DNA of 64,000 bases from an uncultured Acidobacteriota bacterium (GCA_963847125.1 CAWJYM010000006.1:6602-70601); one strand, 5' to 3'. Positions 1,142 through 37,424 are shown, counted from the first letter of the stretch. The notes: generated by a model from the sequence alone, not told the origin. Program-made: numbers and translations.

Positions 1142-2845
1142 CTAGCCGAATCTGCTCATCACGAGCACGATGGCCATCCCGAAAATCGTGAGGAGCGTGT
1201 TGCCGATCGCGTAGGGCATCCCGTAGCCCAGCGCCGGGACCTTGCTTCTGGCCGCATCCTGAATCATGCCGAGCGCCGCGGTCGTCGTTCGCACGCCGGC
1301 GCAGACGCCGAACAGGATCGCCGGGTCGAACTTGAAGACGTGGTACCCGAGCAGAATCCCGATGACGAGCGGCACCGAGGTCGCCACGACGCCCCACACG
1401 AAGAGGCTCAGACCCACCTGCTGCAGGCCGGTCACGAACGCCGGCCCCGCGTTGATCCCGACGACGGCAATGAAGACATTGAGGCCGAGGGTGTTCATCA
1501 GGTTCAGGGCCGCGGCCGGAATGCGCCCGAATGTCGGACGAACCGCCCGGAGATACCCGAGGATCAGACCCGCCAGCAGCGCGCCGCCCGACGTCGACAG
1601 CCCGATGGGAATCCCTTTCCAGTTCACACTGAGCGCCCCCACCAGACCGCCGATCACGATCCCCCCGGCGACGGTCATGAGATCCGTCGATTCCAGCGGT
1701 CGATCTGCGTAGCCGAGGGCCCTGGCGGCTTCCTCGACATGCCGCGTGGTGCCCACGACCGAGAGGATGTCGCCCCGCAACACTTCCAGCTCGGGGAGAA
1801 TCGGCAGCTCCACCATGTTCCGCGTGATTCGCCGGAGGTAGACGCCCCGTGCGAATGGCTGGTCGGCCAGTTGCCGCAGCGTCGTGCCGCTCATCGCCTT
1901 GTTCGTGACGAAGATGTCCATCGCGGTCGCCGGGACCTGCAGCAGGCTGGGGTCGTGCACCTCCGGGATCGCGGGTTCGACGTGCTCGACCAGCGCGGCA
2001 TGCGGGCCCGAAATGGCGACGACGTCCCCCGGCGCGAGGACCGTGTCCGGTCCCGCCTCAATCACGGCGTCGCCGCGCCGGACCCGTTCGACGAAGACAC
2101 GAAGGCCCGGGAAGAGATCGCGCACGGGTCGGCCGGTCAGGGCGGATGCGGCGTCGACGCGGTACGCGCGGATCTCGATCGCGCGGTAGGCCGAGAAGAC
2201 GCCCGGATCGAACTCGACGGTCCCACCGCCGAGACGGCGTTCGTACGCGACGCAGGCCGCCGGCAGGTCGATGCCGATCAGCTTCGGGCCGAGCTGCGCG
2301 AGCAGGATCGCCGATCCAATCGTGCCGAAGATGTAGGTCACGGCGTAGCCGATGGGCACGGCGTCGGTGTATCGCTTCGCCTCTGCCGCCGCCAGGCCCA
2401 GCCGCTCGATCTGGTCCGAGGCGACGCCAATCGACGCGGAGATGGTCTGCGAGCCGGCATAGAGGCCGGCCGCGTAGCCCAGGTCGAGACCGGCCACGAG
2501 AGCGCACAGAATCGGGACGACCAGGCAGAGAGCGAGCACGACCAGCGAGAACGCGATCTGCCGGGGCCCGTCGCTGCCGAGCCCTCGGAAGAACTGCGGG
2601 CCGACGCCGTAGCCGACCGCGAAGAGAAACATGAGAAAGAAGGTGGACTTGATCGGTCCTTCGATCGCAAGCCCAAGCTGGCCGATCAGGATGGCCGCCA
2701 GGAGCGTGGCGGTCACGCTGCCGAGCGAGAATCCCGCAAGTTTCCGTGGACCGATCCCGAACCCGGCCGCCAGCGCAAGGAAGACGGCGAGCTCGGGATA
2801 GGCCCGCAGGGTCGCGACGAACCAGCTCCAGACGGCGAGATCCAT
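1142..2845 (-). CDS. aspT: aspartate:alanine exchanger family transporter (AAEx, YidE/YbjL-type duplication with two central RCK_C-like domains)
   Basis: Intact 567-aa ORF. Hydrophobic halves flank two soluble repeats (PGDVVAISGP.., RGDILSVVGT..). It lies 27 nt upstream of asdA, the classical aspT-aspD pairing. Confidence 0.7.
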   Translation of the reverse strand: MDLAVWSWFVATLRAYPELAVFLALAAGFGIGPRKLAGFSLGSVTATLLAAILIGQLGLAIEGPIKSTFFLMFLFAVGYGVGPQFFRGLGSDGPRQIAFSLVVLALCLVVPILCALVAGLDLGYAAGLYAGSQTISASIGVASDQIERLGLAAAEAKRYTDAVPIGYAVTYIFGTIGSAILLAQLGPKLIGIDLPAACVAYERRLGGGTVEFDPGVFSAYRAIEIRAYRVDAASALTGRPVRDLFPGLRVFVERVRRGDAVIEAGPDTVLAPGDVVAISGPHAALVEHVEPAIPEVHDPSLLQVPATAMDIFVTNKAMSGTTLRQLADQPFARGVYLRRITRNMVELPILPELEVLRGDILSVVGTTRHVEEAARALGYADRPLESTDLMTVAGGIVIGGLVGALSVNWKGIPIGLSTSGGALLAGLILGYLRAVRPTFGRIPAAALNLMNTLGLNVFIAVVGINAGPAFVTGLQQVGLSLFVWGVVATSVPLVIGILLGYHVFKFDPAILFGVCAGVRTTTAALGMIQDAARSKVPALGYGMPYAIGNTLLTIFGMAIVLVMSRFG

Positions 2846-2856
2846 CGCGTCCCCGG

Positions 2857-3933
2857 TCAGTACTTGTCGAAGAGTTCCTGGACCTTCTTCGGGTCCGAGG
2901 ACTGGGTCAGCGCGAGCTTCAGCAGCACACGCGACTTGGATGGGTTGAGCTCCTTCGACACCACCGTGCCGGTCTTGTCGTCATCCACCTCGATATTTCG
3001 GCGGACGATTCCCTCCCCCACTCGCGTCGATCGCACGACGACGACACCCTTTGCGAGCGCGCGCTTGACCGCCTCGAGCGCCGGCGTCGTCATGTTGCCG
3101 TCGCCGACGCCGGCGATGACGATCCCTTTCGCGCCGCCCGCGACGGCGGCATCGATCAGGTCGGGAGACATCCCGGCGTGCGCGTAAATGACGTCCACGC
3201 GCGGCAGGGTCTGGCCCGCGGTCACCTTGAATGGCGTCGCGGTCGTGTGCGCCCGTGCCGGCGACCGGGAGAACTCGCGGTCATCGAACAGACACACGCC
3301 AATCAACCCCGCTTCAGGGGAGACGAACGTCTCGACGTCGGTGGTGTGCCGCTTGGTGATGGCGCGCGCCCCGTGGATGTCGTCGTTGGCCACGACCAGC
3401 ACGCCCCGGCCCTTGGCCCGCGGATCGCCCGCGACGCCGACGGCGTTGTAGATGTTCAGCGGGCCGTCGGCGCTGAGCGACGTGGACGGGCGCATCGAGC
3501 CGGTCAGCACCACCGGCTTGTCGCTCTTCACGACCAGATTGAGGAAATAGGCCGTCTCCTCCATCGTGTCGGTGCCGTGCGTGATCGCCACGCCGTCGAC
3601 ATCGGACTTCGCCAGCAGACCATTGACCTCGGTCGCGAGCTTCACCCAGAGCTCGTCGTTCATGTCCTGGCTGCCGACCGACGACACCTGCACGCCGCGC
3701 ACGTCCGCGAACTTCTTCATCTGCGGCACGGCGTTGATCAGCGTCTCCACCGCGACCGCGCCGGACTTGTATCCAGCCGCGGTCGTGGATTCGGCCGAGC
3801 CGGCGATGGTCCCGCCGGTGGCGACGATGACGATCCTGGGCTTGGCTCCCTGCGCGCCGGCCGGGACTGTGCGAATCACGACGGCACCAGCCACGGCCGC
3901 GGCCAGGGACACATACAAAACGTTCCGGTACAT
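2857..3933 (-). CDS. ansB: periplasmic type II L-asparaginase
   Basis: ORF 2857..4173 trimmed to ATG 3933, giving the signal peptide MYRNVLYVSLAAAVAGAVVIRTVPAGAQG. Motifs IVATGGTIAG and ITHGTDTMEETAYFLNL are present. Confidence 0.85.
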   Translation of the reverse strand: MYRNVLYVSLAAAVAGAVVIRTVPAGAQGAKPRIVIVATGGTIAGSAESTTAAGYKSGAVAVETLINAVPQMKKFADVRGVQVSSVGSQDMNDELWVKLATEVNGLLAKSDVDGVAITHGTDTMEETAYFLNLVVKSDKPVVLTGSMRPSTSLSADGPLNIYNAVGVAGDPRAKGRGVLVVANDDIHGARAITKRHTTDVETFVSPEAGLIGVCLFDDREFSRSPARAHTTATPFKVTAGQTLPRVDVIYAHAGMSPDLIDAAVAGGAKGIVIAGVGDGNMTTPALEAVKRALAKGVVVVRSTRVGEGIVRRNIEVDDDKTGTVVSKELNPSKSRVLLKLALTQSSDPKKVQELFDKY

Positions 3934-3955
3934 GTTGACCTCTGAACTTTCTGCG

Positions 3956-5024
3956 TCAGCTTCCGCTCTTCCTCGCCGCGTACGGATTTCCGCCCAGCGC
4001 ATTCGAGATGTCGGTGATCGCCCGCTGCGCGCGCACGCTGTTGCCCGCATCGTCGAGCGGCGGGGACACGACGGCGATGCCGAACTTGCCCGGCGAGACG
4101 GCGATGATGCCGCCGCCGACGCCGCTCTTGGCCGGCAGTCCCGTCGCATAGAGCCACTTGCCCGAGTCGTCATAGAGTCCGGCCGTCGCCATCACGGCGA
4201 GTACGCCGGGCACCCTGGCCGGGTCCATCACCTGCTTGCCCGTGACGGGGTTCCTGCCGCCAAACGCCAGCGTGGCCGCCATCATCGCCAGATCGTTCGC
4301 GTTGACCCCGATCGAGCACTGGCGCGTGTAGAGATCGACCGCCTGCTGCCAGTTGTTCTTGATGTAGCCGTAGGCGAGCATGAGCGCGCCGATCGCCTGG
4401 TTGCGCTGGTTCGTGTCGGACTCCGACTTGTAGACGTCCTGGAGCACGCTCAGCTGGCGTCCCGCGGCGTCGTTGTGGAAGCCGATGATCTTCTTCCAGA
4501 CCTCGTCGGACGAGGATCCCGTCACCATGCTGGTCGCCGAGATGGCGCCTGGATTCACCAGCGGGTTCATCTCCGGCGCGCCCGTCCCGACGACGGTCCG
4601 GACGCCCTCGATCGCGATGATCGAATTGAAGCGCGCGCCCGTCGCGTCGACGCCGATGCGCTTCGCGACGGAATCCAGCCCCTGTTCCTGGATGACCTGC
4701 GCCATCGTGAAGACCTTCGAGATCGACTGGATCGAGACCTCGGTCTTCACGTCGCCCGCGGAGAAGACCTTGCCGTCCGCGGTCACGACGGCGATGCCGA
4801 ACAGGTTCGGGTCGACCTTCGCCAGGGCCGGGATGTAGTCCGCGTTCTTGCCTTCCTTCAGCGTCCTGAACTTCCCATAGGCCGCGTCAACGGCCTGTTG
4901 CACCTGGGAGGATGAGGCGGGCTGGGGTGGAGTGGGCGCCTGCGCGCCGAGCGACGGCATGCCCAGGGCCAGCAGCGCCGAGCAGCCCCGCCCCGAGAGA
5001 AACACGCCGATTCCGTCGATTCAT
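3956..5024 (-). CDS. glsA: glutaminase A with N-terminal signal peptide (probable 1-nt indel near 5003)
   Basis: ORF 3956..5005 carries YIPALAKVDP and the SxxK motif QSISKVFT. GGAGG-N6-ATG at 5024 opens MNRRNRR in a neighbouring frame, so the real start is probably 5024 with a frameshift a few codons in. Confidence 0.8.
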
Positions 5025-5026
5025 GA

Positions 5027-6286
5027 TCAACCTCCAAGCTTCCACGAGAAGTTGTATTTGAACGAGAACTGCACCTTGACGCCGTCGCTCGTGAACCCGT
5101 CCGAGAAGTTCTCGCGGCGGCCCCACTGGAATTCGCCGGCGACCATCACATTCGGGGCGGGGTAGTGGACGAGGTTGCCCACCACGTAGTGACCCGTCCT
5201 GAAGGCGCTGGGCGCCTGCGCGTCGGTGTTGTCGTTCTCCTGCCACGAGTAGCCGATCGAGGTGCTGTATTCCTCGCTGAAGGAGTGATCGAGAAACGCG
5301 ACGATGCCGAGGATCGGGACCGGTTCGCCGACGACCGGCGTCACCGGGTTGGAAAGGTTATTGGCGATGCCGATGTCTATGGGAGAGTCGTTCATGTAGT
5401 TCTGAATGCCCTCGCCAAACACGAACTGCAACCGGATCGTGCTCGCCTTGCTCGGCTTGAGGTTCGAGCTGAGGTTGATGCCCCATCCCCAGGCATCGCC
5501 CGAGAGGTCGAATTGATCGTCGAGGACGTCGTCCCACTTGATCAGCCGGAGCATGCCGGCGGCTCTGCAGGTAGCCCCAGTCCTGTGAGTACTTGTAGGC
5601 GCCGGAGAAGTCGGGCAGCGGGAATCGTGCCCGGATGTTCTGCAGCTCCACACGGTCCGCATAGACGCCCGAGTCGCCGCTCGCGCCGGGCCGCTCGACG
5701 GCGAGCGTGAGGCTTGGCGGTTGGCATCCAGCGGACCTGCACGTTGCGAAACAACACCATGCCGGTGGGTCCCCAGTACTCGACAATGTTCGGGAAGACG
5801 TCCGGATCCATGAACGGGCTCCACCACTGGCCCGCCCCGAATTGTCCGAGCTCGCCATATGCGTGGCGGAGGCGGAACGTGGTCTGCCCCTCGTCCACGC
5901 CCACGCCGAACAGCTCGAACTCGAACGTGGTCTTCAGGTCGCCCACCGCCGTCGGCGTGGTCGATCGCACGCCCAGGCGGCTCTGCCGGACGCCGGCGAA
6001 CGTGCTGCCGTCCTCGCCGAACTGATTCTCGAATGAGGGCAGCCTGGTGAGACGCAGCGTGTCGAACCAGTTCGGGTTGATCTGCGTGAAGTTCCCGCCG
6101 ATGTCGAGCATCGCGAAGCCGTAGATCTCGAAGCTCGGCTTCGTTTCCTGCGGGCATGCTCGGAGGCGCAGGTGCTGGCCTGCTGGGCTGCGTCTCCTGC
6201 GCGCGCGCGATCGAGGAGCCGCCGACGATCAGAAACGCCGTCAGCCAGATCAAACCGGTATGCCGGTTCGTCGGTGTTCGTCGCAT
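5027..6286 (-). CDS. outer-membrane porin (DcaP-like beta-barrel), reading frame broken at least 3 times
   Basis: AAGGAGAG SD plus ATG 6286 gives the signal peptide MRRTPTNRHTGLIWLTAFLIVGGSSIARAQE. It continues in other frames as FEIYGFAMLDIGGNFTQINPNWFD.. (ORF 5542..6111), ..FPLPDFSGAYKYSQDWGYLQ (ORF 5358..5858) and ..FSFKYNFSWKLGG (tail of ORF 5027..7204). Confidence 0.55.
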   Translation of the reverse strand: MRRTPTNRHTGLIWLTAFLIVGGSSIARAQETQPSRPAPAPPSMPAGNEAELRDLRLRDARHRRELHADQPELVRHAASHQAALIRESVRRGRQHVRRRPAEPPGRAIDHADGGGRPEDHVRVRAVRRGRGRGADHVPPPPRIWRARTIRGGPVVEPVHGSGRLPEHCRVLGTHRHGVVSQRAGPLDANRQASRSPSSGPARAATRASMRTVWSCRTSGHDSRCPTSPAPTSTHRTGATCRAAGMLRLIKWDDVLDDQFDLSGDAWGWGINLSSNLKPSKASTIRLQFVFGEGIQNYMNDSPIDIGIANNLSNPVTPVVGEPVPILGIVAFLDHSFSEEYSTSIGYSWQENDNTDAQAPSAFRTGHYVVGNLVHYPAPNVMVAGEFQWGRRENFSDGFTSDGVKVQFSFKYNFSWKLGG

Positions 6287-6312
6287 GTCTGTCTCTCCTT
6301 GTCTGAGTGCAT

Positions 6313-7445
6313 TCATTGCGACGTTTGCCTTTTCCCACGCGCGGACACGGCGCCGGCCTTCGTCGAAGATCCGCTCGTAATTGCCCTTCCGGACTTTCAG
6401 GCTCGCGTCCGGCGTGAGCAGGCGCCAGACCGGCGCCCACATGTCGAACACGGCGAAATACGGCGCCGGACCGGCCGGCGCCACGGTGTCGGTTCCGAAG
6501 AGGAACCGGTCGGGATACTTGTTGAGCATCGCCGCCACGCGCTTGACGGACTCCGGCGAGGCCACCGCGTACTTGGCGACCTCGTCCCAGGAGATATCGA
6601 AGCTCACATGGGCGAGCGCCGGATCGGTGAGCATCGCCTCGACGATCCCGACGTGCGTGGGCGTGCGCTCGGCCGCCTCGGCCGACACCCGCACCGGATG
6701 GACGATCCGTCCGAGGCCGATGTGCGCCCAGATGATGGTCGTCTTCGGGTGGCGCTTGAGCAGCGCTTTCATCTGAGACAGGTACACCGGCTCCGCGTCG
6801 GTCTTCGCGAACGGCATGTCGATGTCGTTGTGGAGGATCACGACGAGGCCCGACTCTGCGGCGAAGTCGAGGATGCGGTCGAGCGCGGGATTGGTGAGGC
6901 TGGCCGTCTCGCCGGAGATCTTGGCCGAGACGAATTCCTTGTGGATGCTGAACTCGCCGATGCCGGAGAAGACGCCGGGAAACGCCTTCAGCACCCGCCG
7001 GATGTGATCGACGCCGTACATGTCGGCCGGGTTGAAGCCGGTGATCATCGGATCGAAGCGCGCCTGTTCCTCCTTCGAGAGCGAGCGATAGACGGCCGCG
7101 ATGTACGCGTCGGTGAACGAGTAGTAGTAGAGCGGCGCGTCGCTCTGCAGGTAGTAGGTCGGCGCGAAGTCGCCGGAATTGCCGTACGACCACTGCTGCT
7201 GCAAGCGGGATGCCGAAGAGCGTCGAGCGGCCGACGCGGTTCCCCATGATCTTGAGGAACTGACGCGGCTCGATGCCCTCCTGGATGTAGTTCGTCAGGT
7301 GGAAATGGGAGTCGTTGAAACCGTCGGCCGGTCCCTGTCCCTGCGCGCCGGTGGGACGCGCGAGAAACATCGCGGACAACGTCAGGCTCGCGAGGGCAGC
7401 CAGGAAGACGGCCGACCGGGACGACAGGTGGCGAAGGATCTTCAT
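6313..7445 (-). CDS. secreted metal-dependent amidohydrolase (TIM-barrel, Amidohydro_2-like), two frame breaks
   Basis: ATG 7445 gives MKILRHLSSRSAVFLAALASLTLSAMFLARPTGAQG..DSHFHLTNY. The frame switches near 7205 into ORF 5027..7204 (QQQWSYGNSGDF..HNDIDMP..WAHIGLG..FGTDTV). No in-frame stop precedes the next gene. Removing one A of the A4 run (6330..6333) gives a stop at 6313. Confidence 0.6.
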
Positions 7446-7452
7446 AGATCGA

Positions 7453-9031
7453 TCAGAAATTCATCTCGAGATTGATGTGGAAGACGGGTCCCTTGGACCC
7501 GACCGCGTACGGATAGGCGGTATATCCGACCGGAGACCCGTTCACGTACATCAACTCTCCGTTCACTCGCAGCCCCCGCTCCTTCATGAAGTACCAATTG
7601 GCCCCGCCCCGCACTTCCCAGGGGTCGCCGAAGTCGCCGTACACCTGCGAGGTGCCGAAGTACACCTGAAGGATCCTCGGAACGGCCATCGCGGAGGCCT
7701 GCAGCTGATAGCCGGTGTCGTCGATGTTCGGGATGCTGCCGGTGTTGAGGCCGGTGAAGTTCCTCAACCAGCGCCAGTACACCTCGCCTTCGAGCGCGAT
7801 GCCCTTGTACTTGACGCCGGCGTCGATGCTCACCATGTGGTAGTCCACCTCGTTGACGGTGATCCCCTGGCCGAAGAGGTCGGGCGTGAAGATGATGCTG
7901 CCGTCAGACAGACGGATCTGGCTGTTCTCGATCGACTCGGTGCCCGGCTGGCTCTGTCGCTCCTCGAGGCTGTGCGTGTAGTGCAGGCCGACCCGCGTGG
8001 CGACCTTCTGGTGATCGTCGTAGTCGCCGAACGTGTTCCACAGGCCGAACTCGCCGGTCGTGGGCAGCCACACCAGGGAGTACGATTGCGTATCGAACTT
8101 GTTGTCGAGTTGCGCGGCGCTCACGCCGAGCGTGCTCAGATTGTTCCCGACCATCACCTGGTACTTGAGCTCGGTCTGGAACTCGCCTTTCAGCCACACG
8201 CCACGTCGTGTACGAGCCCCTGAAGAACTCGTCGGCGATCAGGCGATTGTCGACGCCCAGCCAGTACGGGAACTGGCCCTCCGTACTCCGTACCGACGGC
8301 AGTGAAGTGATACCGGCACCGACGGCGATGTGCCTGTTGAAGCTGAACGTGAGGTTTCCCGCGCCGACGACCTGTGCCGGATCGCCCTGCGACGTATTCG
8401 CGGACCAGACATAGAGGTAGTAACGGAACTTCGGCGTGAGAAACCATCCGGAGAATGGCGCGAAGAACTTCTGCAACTGCACGTCCTGGCGCCGTTGCAC
8501 CGTTTTTGTGTTGCCGAACGCGTCGACATAGGTCTCGTCCAGATTTCTCTGGTTCAAGTACCTCGCGTAGCTGAAGAGCCGAAAATAGATCTGGCCCTTC
8601 TCGCCGTCGACGAGCAGGAACCCGACGTTGGGAATGTACTGAAGCGGCTTCGGCTTCGTCGTCTCCGGCTGTGCGGCCTGGCCGGTGATGAACTCGCCGC
8701 TGCAGCCGTCGGAGACCCAGATGTTCGTCTGATCGTAGCCCCACGTTCGTCCGAGCAGACACGCTGACTCGCCGGTCGAGCGCTGCAGCACGACGCCCGC
8801 CGACGTGTCGGCCGCGCAGTTCGTGCGTTCTCCGGGCTTCGACGCGCACAAAATGGAGACCGCCGCCAGCTGCGCGGCGGCCTGGGCCGTGCGGCGCAGC
8901 GCCGGCCCCGGTCGGCGGCGCCGACGTCTCTTGCGCGCTGATCGAAGAAGTCGAAAGCAGGAAAAAGGCGGCGGTGACGGCGCGCGTCTCTGAATCGCGC
9001 GTGGATTCCGGGCCAGTAGCAGTCTAATCAT
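7453..9031 (-). CDS. DUF3011-like Cys domain fused to a porin-type beta-barrel (frame breaks near 8203 and in the signal-peptide region)
   Basis: ORF 7904..9061 contains CASKPGERTNCAADTSAGVVLQRSTGESACLLGRTWGYDQTNIWVSDGCSGEF, which fits the DUF3011 pattern. This is followed by beta-strand-rich sequence that continues in ORF 7453..8199 and ends ..HINLEMNF. Confidence 0.5.
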
Positions 9032-9044
9032 CCGCTGTGCGCTC

Positions 9045-9060
9045 AGCACGCGCGGTGCCA
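9045..9060 (-). promoter_or_regulatory. sigma-54 (-24/-12) promoter candidate P1, reading leftward into the porin/Asn-Gln-Asp operon
   Basis: The minus strand reads TGGCACCGCGCGTGCT. GG (9059/9058) and GC (9047/9046) are 12 nt apart. The site is intergenic and correctly oriented. Confidence 0.6.
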
Positions 9061-9152
9061 CGCACAGTCAGCCGGACCAACGCCGTCCAAGTCGTTGACC
9101 GCGAACGAGTCCCGCGAGCGACCGAGCTACGGACTCACGGCTGGCCCTCCGA

Positions 9153-9180
9153 TATTCCGGAGCACCTCCGGTATAACGGC
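9153..9180. promoter_or_regulatory. 28-bp conserved site A (putative enhancer/UAS)
   Basis: TATTCCGGAGCACCTCCGGTATAACGGC. It shares ATTCCGG-N5-CTCCG-N6-CGG with sites at 19888, 31181 and 37339, and lies about 105 bp from both flanking -24 elements. Confidence 0.55.
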
Positions 9181-9268
9181 AGGTTCCACCCGCGCGAAGG
9201 GGCGTCCGGGATCGCGCAATCTTCCCGGCACCCAACCGGTTAGACTGTTCGCGTACCCGCGGTGCGTC

Positions 9269-9284
9269 TGGCATGTCGGGTGCT
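9269..9284 (+). promoter_or_regulatory. sigma-54 promoter candidate P2 for the lipoprotein-porin pair
   Basis: TGGCATGTCGGGTGCT, with GG at 9270/71 and GC at 9282/83. Predicted +1 is about 9295. AAGGAGAGAGG SD and ATG at 9321. Confidence 0.6.
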
Positions 9285-9320
9285 CACGTTCGATTCAGAT
9301 CTGGGCTAAGGAGAGAGGAA

Positions 9321-10029
9321 ATGAAAAGGATCGGTTCACTGGCGCTTGTCGCCGTGACCCTCGTGGCGTTCTCCGGTTCGGGCGCTGCCTGGACGCGGCA
9401 GCAGCCGACCGTGGCAGATCCCCAAGCCCGGCGTGCCGGAGATCATGACGCTCGAGGGGATGTACGTGCGCGCCGCGTACAACAACGAAGGCTATGCGAT
9501 CCTCGGCTATCGTCTCGCCAACCTGTCGATCGGCGAAGAGTGGATGCTTCTCGAGTTCGGCACGACGGTTCGCGATGGCGTGCCGAACTACACGCTGAAA
9601 CGCGACGCGCTGTCGATCGAGACGCCGGACGGCAAGACCATTCCGATGGCGACCAACGCGGAGTACCTGAAGGTGGACCTGCGGGCGATGCAGAATCGCG
9701 AGAAGGTCCAGCGCGACTCGATCAACTACTTTCCGCCGAGCGCGACACACGCGTGCCGCATCGGGTTCTTCGCCGAGGTGGGCTCGCGCCAGATGGCGTT
9801 CGACGAGGTCGAGCTCAGCAACACGCGCGGATGCGTCGGCCGGATCTTCTTCCAGGTGCCGGGTGGGATTCAGTACGGCCAGCACTGGCTCAACGTGAAG
9901 TTCGAGAAGAGTCTCGTCCGCGTGCCGTTCAGGATCCTGACGAAGGACGAAGAGAAGCTGCTGTCGAAGAACTACAAGGACATCCGGAAGCAGGTCCAGG
10001 ACGCCTTCAAGCCGAAGAAATCGACCTGA
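9321..10029 (+). CDS. secreted or lipoprotein of unknown function (frame break near 9420)
   Basis: ATG 9321 follows a strong SD and gives MKRIGSLALVAVTLVAFSGSGAAW. It continues in ORF 9433..10029 (..IPKPGVPEIMTLEGMYVRAAYNNEGYAILGY..). I recognise no family. Confidence 0.45.
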
Positions 10030-10047
10030 CGGACGAGTAGCGCCATC

Positions 10048-11126
10048 GTGACGCCACCGATCACGGCGCTACTCACGCTCTATCTGAGTGTGGCGGCGGC
10101 TTCCCGCGCCGGCCAGGCGGTGGCGCAAGGCCGCGCCGCCGCAGGAGGCCGACGCCGACAAACACACCGGCCTTCAAGATCAGCGGCCTCGTCTACGGCG
10201 ACTACTACTATGTCGCCGCGAATCACCGCGACGAGCTCGTCGATCGGAACGGCTTCTGGCTCCGGCGTGTGTACTTCACGTACGACCACACGCTGACGCA
10301 GGCGTTCTCGTTGCGCGTTCGGCTCGAGGTGAACAGCGAGGGCGACTTCGTCTCGACCGGCGTCAACAGCCCGTACCTGAAGGACGCCTGGCTCAAATGG
10401 ACGCGCGGGTCGCACGCGCTCACCTTCGGCATGGCCTCGACACCACAGATCGAGTTCGTCGAAGGCTTTCAGGGCTACCGCTCGATCGAGAAAACCCCCA
10501 TCGATCTGTACCGCTGGGACTCCTCGCGGGACCTGGGCATCCTGCTGCAGGGCCGCCTCGGCGGCGCGCAGCGAACGAGCTACTCGGTCCAGGTGGGCAA
10601 CGGATCGGGAACCGAATCCGAAGTGGACCGGAGCAAGTCCGTGCGGGCGCAGCTGGCCCATCGCTTCGAGGGCGGCCTCGCGCTCGAGGGCTACGCCGAC
10701 TGGCAGGATCGACCCGACGGGCGAGACATCTCGACGCTCGAGGCGTTTGCCGGCTGGCAGGAAAAGACGTGGCGCGCGTCTCTCGAGTACGGCTCGCAGA
10801 AGCGTCGCGACGCCTCCGACTCGGGGGGCGATCTGGATCTCGAGTTCCTGTCCGCGTTTGCGACTGTCCAGCTGACCTCGAAGCTGGCGGCCGTGGGTCG
10901 AGTCGACCGCAGCTTCGACCCGATCCCGGACGGTGAGACGATCGACTACATGCCGTTTGCCGACACGGCCCGCTCGTTCTTTGGCTACGCGGCGATTGAC
11001 GTGACGCTTGCGCCGACGGTGCACCTCATTCCGAACGTCGAGTGGACGACGTACGGACGGGGACCGGACGGCACGACACCGGCATTCGACCTGGTTCCGC
11101 GTGTGACGCTGTTTTTCAGCTGGTAG
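10048..11126 (+). CDS. outer-membrane porin-like beta-barrel (frame break(s) near 10150)
   Basis: Signal-like VTPPITALLTLYLSVAAASRAGQAVAQ, then PAFKISGLVYGDYYYVAANHRDE.. in the frame of ORF 10269..11126. Alternating beta pattern, with an aromatic end ..RVTLFFSW. Confidence 0.55.
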
Positions 11127-11614
11127 ATCGAGCCCAACGATTCGAGACGGCTCGGGCCAGCGCATAGGGAAGCATGATCAACACGGGGCCCGACGACGAG
11201 CGCCGCGCCGGGATGCGAGACGCCCAGGATGATCCGCTGGAAGATCGCATCCATGAGGATGCCCATCAGCAGCAGGTTGATCACGGTCTGGAACGCGCTT
11301 CTCACGAGCGCGCCGCGCACACCCGAACGGAACAGCACGCCGGACAGATAGGGCGGCAGCCCCGCCTTCGCGTCAGCCAGCCCGCTTCGGACGCCCAGGA
11401 TGACCGCGACGAGGGGTTGCACGACGAATCGGAATTTACCCGGGCCGGCGAGCCTTCGGGGGATGTCCTCGAGGAAGGCGCGCGAAAAGAGATAGATGCC
11501 TCCCCGTTCGTACGCGTCACCGAGCGCCGCCGGCGCCGACAGCACGAGCACGAGCAGCGTGACGCTCGCGAGAATCGCGGTGACGCTCCCGCGACGCCAT
11601 CGATTCCACCTCAC
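11116..11614 (-). CDS. small integral membrane protein, unknown family (frame break at C4/G4 run 11185..11188)
   Basis: GTG 11614 overlaps the SulP stop (GTGA). Removing one base of the homopolymer gives ..HPGAALVVGPVLIMLPYALARAVSNRWARSTS with a stop at 11116. Confidence 0.45.
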
Positions 11615-13324
11615 GGCGACGCGCTGCGGTCCGGCGGCCGCGTCGACGCCTTCCAGTCAGACACGACGAGATCGACGGTTTGTCCCGATTGGAGCGGACC
11701 GTACTCCTGTTCGAAGCCGATCCGCCGGAGCGCCTCTCGGACCTCGCCGTGCACTTCGGCCAACCGGAACTCGATGCTCGCGAGCGCGGAAGTGTTTTGT
11801 GCAGGTCGGCGAGGAGCTCGGCGCCGGCGAGATCGATTCTCGGCACCGCGCCCATGAAGAACACGACGAGCCGCACGGCATCCGTGCGCACGTTCAGAAG
11901 CTCGAACAGCCGCTCACGCACGAATTCCACGTTGAAGTACAGCAGCGCCGACTCGCAGCGGACCACGAGCACGCCGGGCGTGCGTTCGTTATCCGGCTGA
12001 CGCGAACGGTCGGCGTAATAGGTCGTTCCGGGGACGCGCGTCAGCTCGGTGACCCGCGGGCGTGAGGCCTGGCGCAGCAGGAGCACGATCGATATCGCGG
12101 CCCCAAGCAGTACGCCGTTGACCGGCCCGGATCCGAGCACGCCGACGAGCGCCGCGATCGCCACGAAGAACTCCCCGCGGCTGAATCGCCAGATGTGCCG
12201 CAGCGCGTGGACGTCGACGAGGCTCATGACGGCGGCGAGCACGATCGCCGCCAGGACCGGCTGCGGCAGGTTCCGCAGCAGTCCGGAGGCAAAGAGCACG
12301 ACGAACGAGCGTGAAGATCGGCGGCGACCAGGCCCGACAGCGGCGTGCGCGCGCCCTGCGCTCTCGTTGACGAGCGACTGCGACATGCCGCCGCTCACCG
12401 GAAACCCGCGGCCGATTCCCGCGGCGAGATTGGCCGCGCCGATCGCCAGCAGTTCCTGATTCGCGTCGAACCGATGGCCGTGCTTCTGGCCGAACATCCG
12501 GCCGATGGCGGACGACTCCACCGCGGCGAGGACGAACGCCGCCAGCGCGATGGGCAGGAGCGCGTTCAGCTCGTGCGGCTGACAGGACGGCACGCCGAGC
12601 GAGCGGCAGGCCCTGCGGCACATCGCCCAGCAACGACACGCCCCGTGCCTCGAGGCTCAGGAATCGCGCCGCCAGCATGCCGGCGACGACGACAAGGAAC
12701 GCCACCGGCCGGTTCTTGAGCCAGAGCTTGCCGGCAATGAGAACGGTCAACGCAACCGCTCCCACGAGCAAGGACACCTCGTGCGTGTCGCCCAGATGCG
12801 CGAGGAAGTAGCCCGAGCGCTCCCAGAAATCGCCGTGCGTGCCCTTGAAGCCAAACAGCTTGGGAAGCTGCGTGCTCGCCAGGTACAGCGCCAGTCCCGC
12901 CTTGAAGCCGACGAGCACGGTTTCGGAAAAAAAGCCGACGGCAGTGCCGGCGCGGACGAGCCACGCCACGAACGCAATGCCGCGACACGATCAGCGCCAC
13001 GCACGCAGCCAGGGCCGCGTGCCGCGCCGGATCGCCGGCGCTCAACTCCCCCACCGACGCGCCGACGAGCAATGACAGCGCCGACGTGACGGTCACGACG
13101 GTGTGCTTCGAGCTGCAGAACAGCCAGAAGATCAGCCCGGAAAAGAGGCACGCGTAGAGGCCCGCTTCGGGCGGAAGGCCGGCGAGCGACGCGTCGCCGA
13201 TCCCCGCGGGCAGGAGGTAGGCGGCAAGCGTGAGGCCGGCGATGAGATCGGGCCGCAGCCACTCGGCCCGATACTCAGGCAGCCACCGGAGGGCCGGCAG
13301 CGCCAGCGCGGTAGGTACGGTCAC
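11611..13324 (-). CDS. SulP-family anion transporter with C-terminal STAS domain (at least 6 frame breaks)
   Basis: Pieces lie in ORFs 12566..13324, 11989..12969 and 11517..12623. They include LPAGIGDASLAGLPPEAGLY, FFSETVLVGFKAGLALYLA, GGMSQSLVNESAGARTPLSGLV (the last only after frame correction), and the STAS part VLVVRCESALLYFNVEF...LAGAELLADLHKTL. Confidence 0.7.
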
Positions 13325-13876: not shown

Positions 13877-15282
<1,406 letters not shown>

Positions 15283-15318
15283 GCTCCTACCTGTCTGCGA
15301 AATCTGAGAGTGTTCGGC

Positions 15319-16185: not shown

Positions 16186-16186
16186 C

Positions 16187-17721
<1,535 letters not shown>

Positions 17722-18152: not shown

Positions 18153-18154
18153 TC

Positions 18155-19768: not shown

Positions 19769-19784
19769 AGCACGGCGCGTGCCA
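19769..19784 (-). promoter_or_regulatory. sigma-54 promoter candidate P3 upstream of atpB
   Basis: The minus strand reads TGGCACGCGCCGTGCT, with GG at 19783/82 and GC at 19771/70. Predicted +1 is about 19758, 13 nt before the atpB ATG. Confidence 0.5.
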
Positions 19785-19887
19785 CGGGCTGGCCGATCGA
19801 CACGGATCCAGCGAGCCCGCGGATCGGCTGGTACAACGGAGACTTCGCGTCGCGGGTCCAGGGTCCTATCGACGGTCCGGCCTCCGG

Positions 19888-19915
19888 TATTCCGGACGTT
19901 CTCCGCGATGCCGGA
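19888..19915. promoter_or_regulatory. 28-bp conserved site B (putative enhancer/UAS)
   Basis: TATTCCGGACGTTCTCCGCGATGCCGGA. It lies 119 bp from the P3 -24 and 99 bp from the P4 -24. Confidence 0.55.
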
Positions 19916-19998
19916 GGGTGCCCGCCGCCGTTTGAATCACGACCGGCCGATTCGCCGCACTTGCGGGACTCCGGAGGCCTTCGAGCAGGGTGCCGCCT

Positions 19999-20014
19999 TG
20001 GTACGTCTGCTGCA
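19999..20014 (+). promoter_or_regulatory. sigma-54 promoter candidate P4
   Basis: TGGTACGTCTGCTGCA, with GG at 20000/01 and GC at 20012/13. GAGGAG SD and ATG 20084 lie downstream. Confidence 0.5.
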
Positions 20015-20684: not shown

Positions 20685-22640
20685 TTGACTGTGGCGAGTC
20701 GAAGCATCGATCTGGCGGAGACGTCTCGGCTGGCAATCGAGGCGTTGCCGAGCGGCGTTCTGATCGCAGACGTCAACGGCACGATTGCGCTCGTCAATCG
20801 CGAGCTGGAACGACAGTTCGGCTACACGCGCGCGGAGCTCGTCGGACAGAACGTCGATCTGGTGCTGCCCGAGGCCTCGAACCTGATTCACGCCGCGCAC
20901 CCGGCAGGTTTCGAGCACGCCCCCTCGGCGCCGATCATGGGAGCCGGCCGTGAGCGTTTCGGCCGCCGCAAGGACGGTTCGCAGATCCAGGTGGAGATCG
21001 GGCTCAGACCGGTCCAGCTCGCGGATAGCTTCTTCGTGCTCGCTTCCGTCGTGGACACCACGCAGCGCGACGAGCTGGAACGCGTCCGCCAGGCCGCCTT
21101 CGAGGAACAGCTCGAGTTCGAGCGGTTCATCGCCGAGCTGTCAGGTCAGTTCATCAATCTCGACGCCGACCGGATCGACGAAGCGATCCGGAGTGGTCTC
21201 GGCCGCATCTGCGCGCAGCTCGGTCTGGACCGAGGCAGCTTCTACCGGATAGGACCGGATGGCGAGCTCTTCGTCGATTGCGTCGGCTGGGTGGCGCCCG
21301 GCGTGCCACCGATCGACGGGCCCATTCCTGCGAAGGAACGGCTGCCCTGGGCGCTCGGACGGCTCCGTGCGGGGGAGGTCGTGTCCTTTTCGACGCGCGA
21401 CGACGTGCCGAGCGACGTCGATCGCGCCAGCTACGCGGCGCTCGGCATCCGGTCGGCACTGGTGATACCCCTGTCTGTCGACGACCGCATCGAAGGCGCA
21501 GTGGGCTTCAACGCCGTACGCGAGGACCGGCCGTGGCCGCCGGAGGTCGTGCACCGCCTCGAGGTCGTCGCGGGCGTGTTCGCGCAGCTCCTGGCGCGGC
21601 AGCGGCGTGACGAGGCGCTGCGCGCCGCGACGGCCGAAGCGCAGCGTCTGAAGGAGCAATTACAGTCGGAGAACGTGTACCTACGGAGGGAGGCGCGGGA
21701 ACGTCTGGGGCCCAGCCGCGCCGTGGGCCAGGGCGCCGCCGTGCGGTTAGTGCTGGAGCAGATCGAGCAGGTCGCGGCGACCGATTCGACGGTCCTGCTG
21801 CTGGGGGAGACCGGGACGGGAAAGGAGCTCTTTGCGACGCAGATCCACGAGCTGAGCGAACGTCACGGCCGGGCGATGGTCAGGGTCAACTGCGCGGCGA
21901 TCCCGGCGACGCTGATCGAGAGCGAGCTGTTCGGGCGCGAGAAGGGGGCTTTCACAGGCGCGCTGGCGCGGCAGGTCGGTCGCTTCGAGCTGGCGGATCA
22001 CTCGACGATCTTCCTCGATGAAATCGGCGATCTGCCCCCCGACGTGCAGGTGAAGCTGCTGCGCGTGCTCGAGGAACGACAGATCGAGCGGCTGGGCAGT
22101 CCGCGGCCGATCGCGGTGGATACCCGGATCATCGCCGCCACGCACCGGAACCTTGAGCAGCGGATCGCGGAGGGCCTCTTCCGGGAAGATCTCTACTACC
22201 GGCTGAGCGTGTTTCCCATTCACGTGCCGCCTTTGCGCGAGCGCGTCGAGGACATTCCGCTGCTCGTCTGGCGGTTCGTGGAGGAATTCTCGAAGGCGTT
22301 CGGCAAGCGCGTGGACTCCATCGACAAGGACAACCTCGTGGCCCTGCAGCAATACGCGTGGCCCGGGAACATCCGGGAGTTACGCAACGTCGTGGAGCGC
22401 GCGATGATCGGCGCGACGGGCCCGCGGGTGACCATCGCGCTCCCGCAGCCGACGCCGGCAGCGAGCCGCCGCAGCGGGAAGCTCGTCGACGTCGAGCGAG
22501 AGCACATCCGGAGCGTGCTCGAGGGCACGGGCTGGAGGATTCGAGGCCCCGGCGGGGCGGCCGAGCGGCTCGGAATGAAGCCCACGACCCTCGAGACGCG
22601 AATGGCAAAACTCGGGCTCAGGCGCCCCGGCCACCGCTAG
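20685..22640 (+). CDS. sigma-54-dependent transcriptional activator, PAS-GAF-AAA+-HTH (bEBP-1)
   Basis: Intact 651 aa. Contains GETGTGKE Walker A, the GAFTGA loop (EKGAFTGA), and the C-terminal [26 protein letters not shown]. Confidence 0.85.
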   Translation: MTVASRSIDLAETSRLAIEALPSGVLIADVNGTIALVNRELERQFGYTRAELVGQNVDLVLPEASNLIHAAHPAGFEHAPSAPIMGAGRERFGRRKDGSQIQVEIGLRPVQLADSFFVLASVVDTTQRDELERVRQAAFEEQLEFERFIAELSGQFINLDADRIDEAIRSGLGRICAQLGLDRGSFYRIGPDGELFVDCVGWVAPGVPPIDGPIPAKERLPWALGRLRAGEVVSFSTRDDVPSDVDRASYAALGIRSALVIPLSVDDRIEGAVGFNAVREDRPWPPEVVHRLEVVAGVFAQLLARQRRDEALRAATAEAQRLKEQLQSENVYLRREARERLGPSRAVGQGAAVRLVLEQIEQVAATDSTVLLLGETGTGKELFATQIHELSERHGRAMVRVNCAAIPATLIESELFGREKGAFTGALARQVGRFELADHSTIFLDEIGDLPPDVQVKLLRVLEERQIERLGSPRPIAVDTRIIAATHRNLEQRIAEGLFREDLYYRLSVFPIHVPPLRERVEDIPLLVWRFVEEFSKAFGKRVDSIDKDNLVALQQYAWPGNIRELRNVVERAMIGATGPRVTIALPQPTPAASRRSGKLVDVEREHIRSVLEGTGWRIRGPGGAAERLGMKPTTLETRMAKLGLRRPGHR

Positions 22641-31067: not shown

Positions 31068-31083
31068 AGCAGCCGCCGTGCCA
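31068..31083 (-). promoter_or_regulatory. sigma-54 promoter candidate P5 for DUF3302-HlyD-OMF
   Basis: The minus strand reads TGGCACGGCGGCTGCT, with GG at 31082/81 and GC at 31070/69. Predicted +1 is about 31057, 5 nt before ATG 31052. Confidence 0.6.
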
Positions 31084-31180
31084 GCGTTGCCGTCGGCCGT
31101 CGGCGTGTCCGTAAACCGATGACGCGCCGAGAGTAGACGCGCCAGCACACCCCTCTCCGTCGGCGCGCGTCAACCTCCGC

Positions 31181-31208
31181 TATTCCGGGTATGCTCCGGG
31201 ATACCGGA
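31181..31208. promoter_or_regulatory. 28-bp conserved site C (putative enhancer/UAS)
   Basis: TATTCCGGGTATGCTCCGGGATACCGGA, which contains the 14-bp palindrome TCCGGGATACCGGA. It lies 113 bp from the P5 -24, immediately upstream of bEBP-2. Confidence 0.55.
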
Positions 31209-31278
31209 GCCCAATTTCATTCGGCGCAATCGGGTGATATACCTAAGCCACATCTTCCATCCAAGGGAAGTCCCACTA

Positions 31279-33207
31279 ATGGGAGGATCCATCAGACCCG
31301 CGTGGAACGAGCCGGGGTTCGATGCCGACCGCCTGTTCAGGCTGGCGGCCGAGTCGCTCCCGAGCGGCGTTCTCGTCGTCGCCGCGGACGGCACGATCGT
31401 CTTCGTCAATGCCGAAGTCGAGCGATTGAGCGGCTTTACCCGTCAGGAGCTGATAGGGCAACCCGTCGAGATCCTGCTGCCGGACGCTCGGCCCGAACCC
31501 GGCCGGATGGGCGCACGTCGCGAGCTCTTCGGCCGCCGCCGTGACGGCTCCGAGTTCCCCGTCGAAATCGGCCTGAACCCGATCGAAACCCCCCACGGCA
31601 CGTTCGTGCTCGCGACGATGGTGGACATCGCCGCACGCAAACAGATCGACAGGGCGACCAGCGTGACGCTCGAGGAACAGCTCGAGTTCGAGCGGCTCGT
31701 CGCCGAGTTGACGGCAAAGTTCATCAACCTGCCTGCAGACCAGGTCGTTGACGCGATCCGCGATGCCCTCCGTCGGATTGGCGAGGGGCTCGATATCGAC
31801 CGCTGCAACTTTTACAGGATTCAGCCGGATGGCATGATGATCGATCCGATCAGCTGGGTGCGAGCGGGGTTTGAGCCTCCGCCGGCGCCCGTTGCCGCCG
31901 AAAAAGACTTTCCCTGGGCTCTCGAGACGCTCCGCGCCGGTCAGGTGGTGTGCTTCTCCAGCGTCGAGGAAATCCCCGACCCCGTAGACCGGGAGAACTA
32001 CCGCGCCAACGGGATTCGGGCTGCCCTCACCGTGCCGTTGTCGGTGGCGGGCGAGATTATCGGCGCCGTTGGCTTCAATCGGTTGCGGGAGCTACGCTCC
32101 TGGGCTCCGGAGACGGTTCATCGGCTCCGCGTGATCGCCGGCGCCTTCGGCAACGTTCTGGCGCGCCAGAAAGCGGACGAGTCGCTCGCGAAAGCGCTCG
32201 CCGAAGTGGAACGGTTGCGCGACCAGTTACACGCCGAGAACGTGTACCTCCGGAGAGAAGCCCGGGAGCGCCTGGGCACCGGCGCAATCGTCGGCAACAG
32301 CCCGGCCGTGCGCCGCGTTCTCGAGCAGGTACAACAGGTGGCGGCGACCGATTCGACGGTGCTGCTCCTCGGAGAGACGGGGACGGGCAAGGAGCTGTTT
32401 GCGACGCAGATTCACGAAGCCAGCACGCGGCGCGCGCGCACGATGGTGCGCGTGAACTGCGCGGCGATCCCCGAGACGCTCATGGAGAGCGAGCTGTTCG
32501 GGCGCGAGAAGGGAGCCTTCACCGGCGCGCTCGCACGGCAGGCGGGGCGTTTCGAGGTGGCAGACCACTCGACCATCTTTCTCGACGAGATCGGCGACCT
32601 GCCGGCCGACGTCCAGGTCAAGCTGCTGCGAGTGCTGGAGGAGCGGCAGATCGAGCGGCTCGGCAGCCCGAAGCCGATTCAGGTGGACGTCAGGATCATC
32701 GCCGCCACGCACCGGGACCTGGAGCAGCGGATCGCGGAGGGGACGTTTCGCGAGGATTTGTATTACCGGCTCAACGTCTTTCCCATTCGAGTGCCGCCGC
32801 TGCGGGAACGGGTCGAGGATATTCCGCTGCTGGTGTGGCGGTTCGTCGAGGAGTTCTCGCGCACGTTCGGCAAGCGGATCGAGGCGATCCCCCGCGAGGC
32901 GATGGCGGCGCTGCAGCAGCATGCGTGGCCGGGCAACATCCGCGAGCTGCGCAACGTCGTGGAGCGCGCGATGATCGTGGCGACCGGGCCCCGGCTGACG
33001 ATCGCCCTTCCGGCGACCAAGATGCCTCCGGGCAAGCGCAGCCTCAAGCTGGCCGATGTCGAGGAACAGCACATCCGGACCGTGCTCGAGACCACACACT
33101 GGCGCATCCGGGGGGCGGGAGGCGCGGCGGAGCGGCTCGGGCTCCGGCCCACCACGCTCGAAACGCGCATGGCCAAGCTGGGAATCAGCCGGCCGAGGGC
33201 CAGATAG
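31279..33207 (+). CDS. sigma-54-dependent activator, PAS-GAF-AAA+-HTH (bEBP-2)
   Basis: ORF 31234..33207. ATG 31279 is preferred because of the AAGGGAAG SD. Contains [16 protein letters not shown], and the [26 protein letters not shown]. Confidence 0.85.
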   Translation: MGGSIRPAWNEPGFDADRLFRLAAESLPSGVLVVAADGTIVFVNAEVERLSGFTRQELIGQPVEILLPDARPEPGRMGARRELFGRRRDGSEFPVEIGLNPIETPHGTFVLATMVDIAARKQIDRATSVTLEEQLEFERLVAELTAKFINLPADQVVDAIRDALRRIGEGLDIDRCNFYRIQPDGMMIDPISWVRAGFEPPPAPVAAEKDFPWALETLRAGQVVCFSSVEEIPDPVDRENYRANGIRAALTVPLSVAGEIIGAVGFNRLRELRSWAPETVHRLRVIAGAFGNVLARQKADESLAKALAEVERLRDQLHAENVYLRREARERLGTGAIVGNSPAVRRVLEQVQQVAATDSTVLLLGETGTGKELFATQIHEASTRRARTMVRVNCAAIPETLMESELFGREKGAFTGALARQAGRFEVADHSTIFLDEIGDLPADVQVKLLRVLEERQIERLGSPKPIQVDVRIIAATHRDLEQRIAEGTFREDLYYRLNVFPIRVPPLRERVEDIPLLVWRFVEEFSRTFGKRIEAIPREAMAALQQHAWPGNIRELRNVVERAMIVATGPRLTIALPATKMPPGKRSLKLADVEEQHIRTVLETTHWRIRGAGGAAERLGLRPTTLETRMAKLGISRPRAR

Positions 33208-33350: not shown

Positions 33351-35333
<1,983 letters not shown>

Positions 35334-35337
<4 letters not shown>

Positions 35338-36113
35338 GACTGGATCTTCACCGCCGCGCTGAGCTGGAACTGGAGCCGCGTCTCGGCCGGCAGCTTCAGA
35401 TGCTCCTCGCCGCTTGCGGCCACGATGGCTCCGGTTGCGCCGCCGACGGCCGCGCCGATGGCCGCCCCTGAACCTCCGCCCGCGATACCCCCGACGATGG
35501 CGCCGAGGCCGGCGCCTCCACCGACCTTGCGCGCAGTCTTCTTCCCTTCTCCCTTGCCTGTGGTCTCGACGTAGGCGGTGGCCACCTCGTACACCATTCC
35601 ACCGAACCCAATCGAGTTCAGCTTCAACGAGATCTTGTCGCTGCCCTTCATCGTCCCCGACTGCTGCACCTGGACAGCTTGCAGGACGGCCGACGCGCCG
35701 CGCGGGATGACGGTCGAACCTTCGACCATCACCGGGTCGTCCACGATCGCCTTGAACTTCATTCCGGCCTGAGAAGCATCGACGTCGATCGCCTGCGTGA
35801 GGCGGACGTTCACCGTCGCGCCGGCCGGGACGGTCACCGTCTTTGGCGCCGGCTTTGGCGCGGTGGCCGGGCTCGCCGGCGACGCCGCCTGCGGCGGTTT
35901 CCGCGGGGTGAATTCCACCGAGACCGCCTCCGTCAGCGGGACCTCGGCCACGCGGCCGTTATCCAGAAGGACCCGAACGGCCTTGCTGTCGCCGCCGATG
36001 AACATCCCTTCCACGGTCTGTCCGGATCGCAGCCGGATCCGGTCCGCCGACAGCGACACTCCCGTCCCGAGCACGAGCATCGCGGCAATCCAGCGAGTCC
36101 TTCGAGTCGTCAT
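35334..36113 (-). CDS. secreted protein with C-terminal glycine-zipper segment
   Basis: ORF trimmed to ATG 36113 (ATGA overlap with the upstream stop). Signal [23 protein letters not shown] and C-terminal [35 protein letters not shown]. Confidence 0.5.
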
Positions 36114-37267: not shown

Positions 37268-37283
37268 TGCAATTGTCGAGCCG
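37268..37283 (-). promoter_or_regulatory. sigma-54 promoter candidate P7 for the DUF4136 operon
   Basis: The minus strand reads CGGCTCGACAATTGCA, with GG at 37282/81 and GC at 37270/69. The -24 half is weak, the -12 TTGCA is perfect, and the leader is 43 nt with an SD. Confidence 0.4.
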
Positions 37284-37338
37284 CGCCAGCGCCTTCACCC
37301 GCCGCGGCAGATGCTCGGACGCCCGAAGCATCACACGG

Positions 37339-37366
37339 CATTCCGGAGGAACTCCGGTCCAGCGGA
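37339..37366. promoter_or_regulatory. 28-bp conserved site D (looser copy)
   Basis: CATTCCGGAGGAACTCCGGTCCAGCGGA. A GTATAACG 8-mer at 37371 is shared with site A. The site lies between P7 (71 bp) and P6 (58 bp). Confidence 0.4.
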
Positions 37367-37408
37367 GCCCGTATAACGCGCCGCTGAATCAGAACAGGCA
37401 ATCGCGGC

Positions 37409-37424
37409 GGGCACAATCCCTGCT
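37409..37424 (+). promoter_or_regulatory. sigma-54 promoter candidate P6 for the STAS-like / large secreted protein pair
   Basis: GGGCACAATCCCTGCT, with GGCAC at 37410 and TGC at 37421. GG to GC spacing is 12 nt. Predicted +1 is about 37435 and the ATG is at 37455. Confidence 0.5.

Follow-up and report, generated by a model that had tools for sequence, protein, structure and literature searches.

The window analysed in this work is a stretch of 64,000 nucleotides from an uncultured Acidobacteriota bacterium; it has a G+C content of 66% and was placed in the Vicinamibacterales by its related loci. At the positions shown it holds an intergenic region from which two sets of genes depart in opposite directions (Table 1). 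The preliminary description, made from the sequence alone, had reported an Asn/Gln-Asp operon on the left; the Pfam searches agree as far as glutaminase, asparaginase and the Asp-Al_Ex permease are concerned, but the genes for an outer-membrane protein and an amidohydrolase come first. The longest asparaginase ORF (2857-4173) shares ~220 nt with the glutaminase gene (3956-5005) at the 3' end of the latter and, since the Pfam domain begins at residue 113, its start probably lies near 3950. Glutaminase and amidohydrolase carry Sec-type signal peptides, and deamidation of Gln and Asn is therefore likely to take place in the periplasm, beside two dedicated outer-membrane channels. The first gene on the right had been taken to encode a lipoprotein; its product does have a Sec signal peptide but lacks a lipobox cysteine, and is thus a secreted or periplasmic protein rather than a lipoprotein. 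Pfam and NCBIfam searches returned no family for the two rightward genes or for the C-terminal barrel of the left outer-membrane protein. Neither sigma-70-like promoters nor terminators were found in 8900-9400, and the Rfam search found no family in the region, the sub-threshold match to P17 sRNA being rejected (14.7 bits for a gathering score of 45). None of the RNA runs covers 7400-10100 of the window. A contig from a soil metatranscriptome (run X1, 204 nt, 99% alike, 2 differences) falls inside the orthologous outer-membrane gene of a related locus (L062:4456-4659), which indicates that this gene is transcribed in situ, the contig being internal to it and holding no 5' end.

Table 1. Positions of the control region elements, the neighbouring genes, the candidate activators and the further enhancer units in the window
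Feature	Position	Strand	Remarks
Leftward operon	1142..9031	-	Pfam, frames, conserved gene order; several genes with frameshifts
Asp-Al_Ex permease	1142-2845	-	leftward operon
Asparaginase	2857 to ~3950	-	leftward operon
Glutaminase	3956-5005	-	leftward operon; signal peptide
DcaP-like porin	5027 to ~6200	-	leftward operon
Amidohydro_2 amidohydrolase	~6100-7445	-	leftward operon; signal peptide
DUF3011/outer-membrane protein	7453-9031	-	first gene of leftward operon
ATG start, DUF3011/outer-membrane gene	9031..9029	-	13 nt after left 16-mer; no Shine-Dalgarno; predicted leader 0-5 nt
Leftward sigma-54 promoter (predicted), TGGCACCGCGCGTGCT	9060..9045	-	GG 9059/9058, GC 9047/9046; predicted +1 ~9034
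Left IHF-like core, CAACGACTTG, context GGTCAACGACTTGG	9097..9088	-	37 nt 5' of left 16-mer, ~-63 from predicted +1
Enhancer palindrome 1, CTCCGATATTCCGGAG	9147..9162		both half-sites strongly conserved
Enhancer palindrome 2, CTCCGGTATAACGGCA	9166..9181		inner half-site strongly conserved, outer half-site weakly
Right IHF-like core, CAACCGGTTA	9233..9242	+	36 nt 5' of right 16-mer
Rightward sigma-54 promoter (predicted), TGGCATGTCGGGTGCT	9269..9284	+	predicted +1 ~9295
Shine-Dalgarno, AAGGAGAGAGG, then ATG (9321) of rightward secreted protein	9308..9323	+	conventional leader, ~26 nt
Rightward secreted protein	9321-10040	+	frameshift near 9400; Sec signal peptide; no lipobox Cys
Putative outer-membrane barrel	~10050-11126	+	second rightward gene; ends ...LFFSW
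Second back-to-back unit	19769..20014		ATP synthase operon on one side, small gene and bEBP1 on the other
Second unit, TGGCACGCGCCGTGCT	19784..19769	-	towards ATP synthase operon
Second unit, palindromes	19882-19897 and 19901-19916		
Second unit, TGGTACGTCTGCTGCA	19999..20014	+	towards small gene, then bEBP1
bEBP1, PAS-GAF-AAA+(sigma-54)-HTH_8	20685..22640	+	GAFTGA intact; candidate binder of site A
Third unit	31068..31209		DUF3302-HlyD-OEP operon
Third unit, TGGCACGGCGGCTGCT	31083..31068	-	in-frame ATG (31052) 15 nt on; DUF3302-HlyD-OEP operon
Third unit, palindromes	31175-31190 and 31194-31209		
bEBP2, paralogue	31234..33207	+	probable start ATG 31279; enhancer copy directly 5'
bEBP3, third paralogue	33351..35471	+	C-terminal HTH out of frame in assembly
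Fourth enhancer copy (37333-37367)	37268..37424		weaker -24/-12 matches 37283..37268 (-) and 37409..37424 (+)

The intergenic region had been interpreted as a pair of back-to-back sigma-54 promoters on account of two 16-mers, both of which are present exactly, on opposite strands and with a gap of 12 nt between GG and GC in each. The left 16-mer departs from TGGCAC-N5-TTGCW at one position and the right 16-mer at two; searched with up to 2 mismatches, this loose consensus shows no enrichment across the window (21 matches for 18.2 expected). The pattern common to both 16-mers, TGGCAY-N6-TGCT, which was picked post hoc once the two sites were known, occurs 4 times for an expectation of 0.10, a count of 4 or more being reached in 0 of 100 shuffles. 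All four matches lie on the correct strand immediately 5' of a gene start, each ~100-105 bp from one copy of a palindrome pair of the kind described below as site A. The distance from the 16-mer to the ATG is 13 nt on the left (ATG 9031) and 36 nt on the right (ATG 9321). We also considered whether the left 16-mer might be coding sequence within an extended ORF that opens at GTG 9061, and rejected this option: what varies between loci is the N5 spacer and the flanks, and what stays fixed is the motif and how far it lies from the enhancer.

Conservation of the left promoter was assessed in 80 fetched loci encoding an orthologous outer-membrane protein. A strong -24/-12 16-mer is found 200-385 nt 5' of the match to this protein in 65 of them, for a background rate of 0.06-0.17 strong 16-mers per kb and strand. 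The resulting consensus, TGGCAc-N5-gTGCT with variable spacer and flanks, has to be taken as partly circular, because the promoter scoring demanded GG and GC. A second, divergent strong 16-mer is present in 33 of the 80 loci at a median spacing of 228 bp (224 bp in the window), and the gene that it faces varies by genome, being often an OmpW-like barrel of ~235 aa and sometimes an ABM-like protein of ~120 aa (L072, L075, L076, L088, L089, L097 and L108), with still other genes in the rest. Throughout loci L036-L108 the enhancer and the spacing stay constant while the gene on the divergent promoter changes; hence the conserved unit is the control module and not the gene pair. The order of the operon genes 3' of the left promoter is likewise conserved in the orthologous loci. 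Orthologues of the right gene mostly reside in other genomic contexts, yet they keep the 16-mer, the palindrome (111-124 bp 5' of the sigma-54 16-mer) and the IHF-like core at -35/-36, so that each promoter is conserved on its own; the right promoter is retained in ~12 closer orthologues. In one related locus (L002) an activator gene ends just 5' of the right-gene promoter site.

Midway between the promoters, site A consists of two tandem 16-bp palindromes placed 19 bp apart. Measured from its midpoint at ~9164, the left GG is 105.5 bp and the right GG 106.5 bp away, in agreement with the ~105 bp proposed for each side in the preliminary description. Of 65 loci, 26 carry the enhancer core, CGGAG-N3-CTCCG-N6-CGGAG, without any mismatch and 44 with at most 2, the best of 1300 shuffles still showing 3 mismatches; the consensus across loci reads ..ccg.....ccGGAG..cCTCCGgaat..CGGAGg. 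From the palindrome centre the median distance is 96 bp to the left 16-mer (mostly 91-100 bp) and 113 bp to the divergent one, both inside the ~80-150 bp usual for an upstream activator site, which puts the palindromes at ~-120 and ~-140 with respect to each promoter. The related loci contain 25 further enhancer copies at other places; 18 of these have outward sigma-54 16-mers, several of them on both sides. In four more distant loci (L075, L076, L088 and L089) the site takes a variant form, e.g. TCTCCGACGGGTCGGGGG ... CACGGGATTTCGGGGA, and the bEBP1-like genes are only ~50% identical; these variants could permit a covariation test of recognition helix against motif. No NtrC-like site (TGCACC-N5-GGTGCA, up to 3 mismatches) was found in 9061-9268, and no NifA-type site (TGT-N10-ACA) anywhere in the window.

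Site A is flanked on each side by an IHF-like site, an element absent from the preliminary description. CAA-N4-TTR is found at -35 to -39 of the left 16-mer in 22 of 57 loci for 1.0 expected, frequently in the context TCAACGACTTG, and the right core keeps its position (-35/-36) in seven loci of the right-gene set, the window included (L001, L002, L011, L012, L014 and L030 being the others). On both sides it is the position that is conserved, the match to WATCAANNNNTTR being partial; the right IHF-like site (ACCCAACCGGTTA) is, together with the outer half-site of palindrome 2, among the weak matches of the region. No ihf genes were found in the window and the fetched loci.

The dual palindrome with outward -24/-12 elements recurs at three further places in the window. 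One of them faces an F-type ATP synthase operon of the usual order (13877-19784, minus strand; a subunit 18891-19745, alpha 16384-17721, beta from 13877), whose ATG lies 23 nt after the strong 16-mer at 19784..19769, with no obvious Shine-Dalgarno sequence; enhancer-dependent control of ATP synthase would be unusual. The opposite promoter of this unit faces a small gene of no known family (ATG 20085, Shine-Dalgarno GAGGAG) that is followed by bEBP1, which suggests positive autoregulation of this predicted activator through the promoter at 19999-20014. The third unit precedes an efflux-type DUF3302-HlyD-OEP operon (27706-31083, minus strand), the second in the window with a leaderless-type sigma-54 start. 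The fourth copy is flanked by two genes, one on the minus strand for a secreted protein (ATG 37215) and a small one on the plus strand (ATG 37455), at shorter enhancer-promoter distances of ~50-58 bp, and its 16-mer CGGCTCGACAATTGCA resembles the divergent promoters of two related loci (L062 and L065).

Three sigma-54 activators of the PAS-GAF type are encoded in the window, all of them with an intact GAFTGA loop, and the 12 residues of the recognition helix are identical in bEBP1 and bEBP2. None of the three reaches the NCBIfam cut-off of a named equivalog, FhlA, NifA and NorR being the best-scoring models (385, 373 and 355 bits for a candidate activator, with cut-offs of 830, 529 and 476, respectively); FhlA scores best for bEBP2, which is no FhlA equivalog because 385 bits fall below the cut-off of 830. 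Scanning genomes with the PAS-GAF part of bEBP2 yielded no usable regulator orthologues, since generic PAS domains of many phyla dominated the matches. Copies of the enhancer precede both bEBP2 and the bEBP1 operon, an arrangement that recurs in other genomes, the layout enhancer, small gene and bEBP1 being found in the window and in three related loci (L001, L041 and L044); for this reason the paralogues are taken to be the likely binders of site A. A regular expression for the RpoN box gave no match in six-frame translations of the window and of 112 loci (~1.5 Mb of flanks only), and the presence of sigma-54 activators implies that the genome encodes rpoN.

With these elements at hand it can be asked whether a single enhancer would be used simultaneously by both promoters. 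We consider it unlikely, if worth serious thought, that the promoters are real but the enhancer is not shared, either because the activator is encoded elsewhere or because each promoter has a palindrome of its own. The placement of the palindromes at ~-120 and ~-140 from each promoter would fit such a one-to-one geometry, many loci combine the enhancer with a single promoter, the activator gene nearest to site A is 11 kb away, and our candidate activators are chosen by co-location and the common HTH. Both palindromes are nonetheless kept in the single-promoter loci, the half-sites with strong conservation, three in number, are packed into a single unit of 24 bp, and the enhancer copies in front of bEBP2 and the bEBP1 operon, along with the one recognition helix common to both proteins, speak for an activator from the window itself. 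A shared enhancer bound by one or more of the paralogues thus remains our preferred reading of site A.

The start of the leftward mRNA was a point on which the preliminary description had been cautious, noting that the predicted +1 falls very close to the first ATG and leaving open whether the transcript is leaderless or translation begins further in. The first observation holds, as a canonical C at -12 puts +1 at ~9034, next to the ATG at 9031. Comparison among the loci favours the leaderless option: in 43 of 66 loci the distance from the 16-mer to the first ATG is 11-16 nt (mode 13 nt; the codon is always ATG), as against 6.5% in controls, and among these 43 loci the ATG is in frame with the protein in 36 and is preceded by an SD-like sequence in 1. 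Sec signal peptides begin at this close ATG in the orthologous loci, in six of which (L047, L053, L058, L087, L093 and L102) no other start precedes the hydrophobic core. For other strong 16-mers in the related loci the ATG spacing is less enriched (16 of 121). In Campylobacter jejuni the sigma-54 motif lies 8-13 nt 5' of mapped transcription starts (PMC3847290); taken together with the spacing, the lack of a Shine-Dalgarno sequence and the position of the signal peptides, these distances lead to a predicted leader of 0-5 nt. A limited search retrieved no literature linking sigma-54 with leaderless mRNAs, the surveys of transcription starts leaving the two unconnected.

That the promoters are real and the leftward mRNA is not leaderless, whether through a later start codon or through a second upstream promoter giving a leadered transcript, we hold to be quite unlikely. 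The appeal of this reading comes from the +1 itself, which the canonical C at -12 places 1-5 nt before the ATG and not on it, from the frame after the ATG, which is broken in the window, from other in-frame starts that exist in some loci, and from the 23-nt gap of the ATP synthase promoter. A sharp peak of the ATG spacing at 13 nt without SD-like sequence speaks against a leader, as do the signal peptides that begin at the ATG and the several loci that offer no alternative start, and a second promoter of the sigma-70 type has no candidate in the region. All this favours, at the level of sequence comparison, a leftward mRNA that is leaderless or nearly so. If confirmed, it would mean that the tightly regulated class of sigma-54 promoters can couple to Shine-Dalgarno-independent translation.

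The N-terminal frameshifts that had been noticed in the left gene are present, at least three of them in the window copy of this gene, and others affect the amidohydrolase, the DcaP porin, the right gene, a SulP-like transporter and bEBP3 (regions such as 5027-7445, 7453-9031, 9321-10040, 11517-13324 and 35200-35471). Were these frameshifts real, the operon would be decaying in the source genome and the control region would be a relic, an explanation that the frameshifts in these genes recommend but that we rate as very improbable. The regulatory motifs are intact. The frameshifts are scattered over unrelated genes across the window, and the orthologues in other assemblies read through in a single open frame, for which reasons most frameshifts are treated here as assembly errors; indel errors are their likely cause because the nearest relatives of the window are nanopore-only MAGs, where such errors are common. 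That the 16-mers are chance GC-rich matches, as the lack of enrichment of the loose consensus in a window of 66% G+C might insinuate, and the palindrome the operator of an ordinary sigma-70 regulator, is barely credible given the conservation of motif, spacing and orientation over 65 loci with varying N5 spacer and flanks, the absence of sigma-70-like promoters in the region and the three sigma-54 activators encoded in the window.

Promoters, enhancer and spacing are thus maintained in dozens of divergent Vicinamibacterales genomes, which supports the back-to-back sigma-54 arrangement first proposed for this region, and we regard 9032-9320 as probably a control region that serves both directions and depends on an enhancer. 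What can be read directly are the activator genes and the sequence elements, which are conserved and spaced at fixed distances, and on these the following model can be built. Sigma-54 RNA polymerase would form closed complexes on the outward -24/-12 elements at 9060..9045 and 9269..9284. Both palindromes of site A (9147-9181), midway and ~105 bp from each GG, would be bound by a PAS-GAF-AAA+-HTH activator, for which one or more of the window's own three paralogues are the most likely choice; it would respond to a physiological signal that, like the identity of the activator, we infer. Bends at the IHF-like sites, -36/-37 of each 16-mer, would loop the bound activator onto either polymerase, and ATP hydrolysis by the activator would then open the promoter. 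The leftward output would comprise the outer-membrane channels, the enzymes of the putatively periplasmic amide hydrolysis (amidohydrolase, glutaminase and asparaginase) and the Asp-Al_Ex permease, from an mRNA whose exact start we infer to lie within ~0-5 nt of the ATG; the rightward output would be the secreted protein and the outer-membrane barrel, translated from an mRNA with a predicted leader of ~26 nt and a Shine-Dalgarno sequence.

It is tempting to go one step further and to see in these units a sigma-54 regulon of the Vicinamibacterales, defined by a dual CTCCG-N6-CGGAG enhancer midway between promoters and by IHF-like sites at fixed positions, a joint reading that we find quite possible but advance tentatively. 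Within such a regulon, the paralogous PAS-GAF activators with their common helix may converge different signals on the module, many members may fuse the -12 element to the start codon and give leaderless mRNAs that lack a Shine-Dalgarno sequence, and control may reach past nitrogen scavenging to the F-type ATP synthase operon and an efflux pump. Soil Acidobacteria are abundant and hard to grow, and to our knowledge their gene regulation is almost unstudied; our search of the literature for Acidobacteria together with sigma-54 enhancer-binding proteins found nothing relevant. For this lineage the present analysis puts forward an enhancer motif in concrete form, the promoter consensus TGGCAc-N5-gTGCT and a family of candidate activators, together with a predicted regulon that takes in outer-membrane channels, a probably periplasmic Gln/Asn deamidation, an efflux system and ATP synthase; each of these is testable in cultured relatives. 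The conserved gap of 11-16 nt from the -12 element to the ATG further predicts leaderless sigma-54 transcripts.

Several features of the proposed module have counterparts in well-known systems. In E. coli, zraP/zraSR (ZraR) and hyc/hyp (FhlA) have divergent sigma-54 promoters activated from a shared intergenic region, FhlA also carrying GAF domains, and their genes possess conventional leaders; the binding-site sequences in the window differ from theirs. The periplasmic glutaminase-asparaginase of Pseudomonas (ansB/PGA) is sigma-54-dependent and under AauR/AauS, and ties enhancer-dependent periplasmic deamidation of Gln and Asn to the uptake of acidic amino acids, as the leftward operon is predicted to do. 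Its regulator is a two-component response regulator, unlike the PAS-GAF activator of the window, and we know of neither dedicated outer-membrane channel genes nor a divergent promoter pair in that system. The enhancers of NtrC (glnAp2-type) and NifA are built of two tandem dyads ~100-140 bp 5' of -24/-12, with IHF assisting many NifA promoters; the window motif is CTCCG-N6-CGGAG, NtrC- and NifA-type sites being absent. Desulfovibrio vulgaris orp1/orp2 has divergent sigma-54 promoters with sites for the activator DVU2106 (OrpR) between them (PMC3897727; PMC8359166), the activator sites being separated from the promoters by functional IHF sites (PMC3897727). The window is predicted to follow the same plan, with two outward promoters, a single cluster of activator sites between them and IHF-like sites, in another phylum, with another binding motif and other target genes, the orp arrangement being established by experiment and ours from sequence. 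The sensors also differ, the window activators having PAS-GAF domains and OrpR being reported as an iron-sulfur redox sensor (PMC8359166); no mention of a leaderless transcript was found in these sources on the orp system. The general architecture is already known from D. vulgaris orp, and what the Vicinamibacterales module would add to this picture is the enhancer motif, an uncharacterised activator family and the unusual, conserved leaderless design predicted here.
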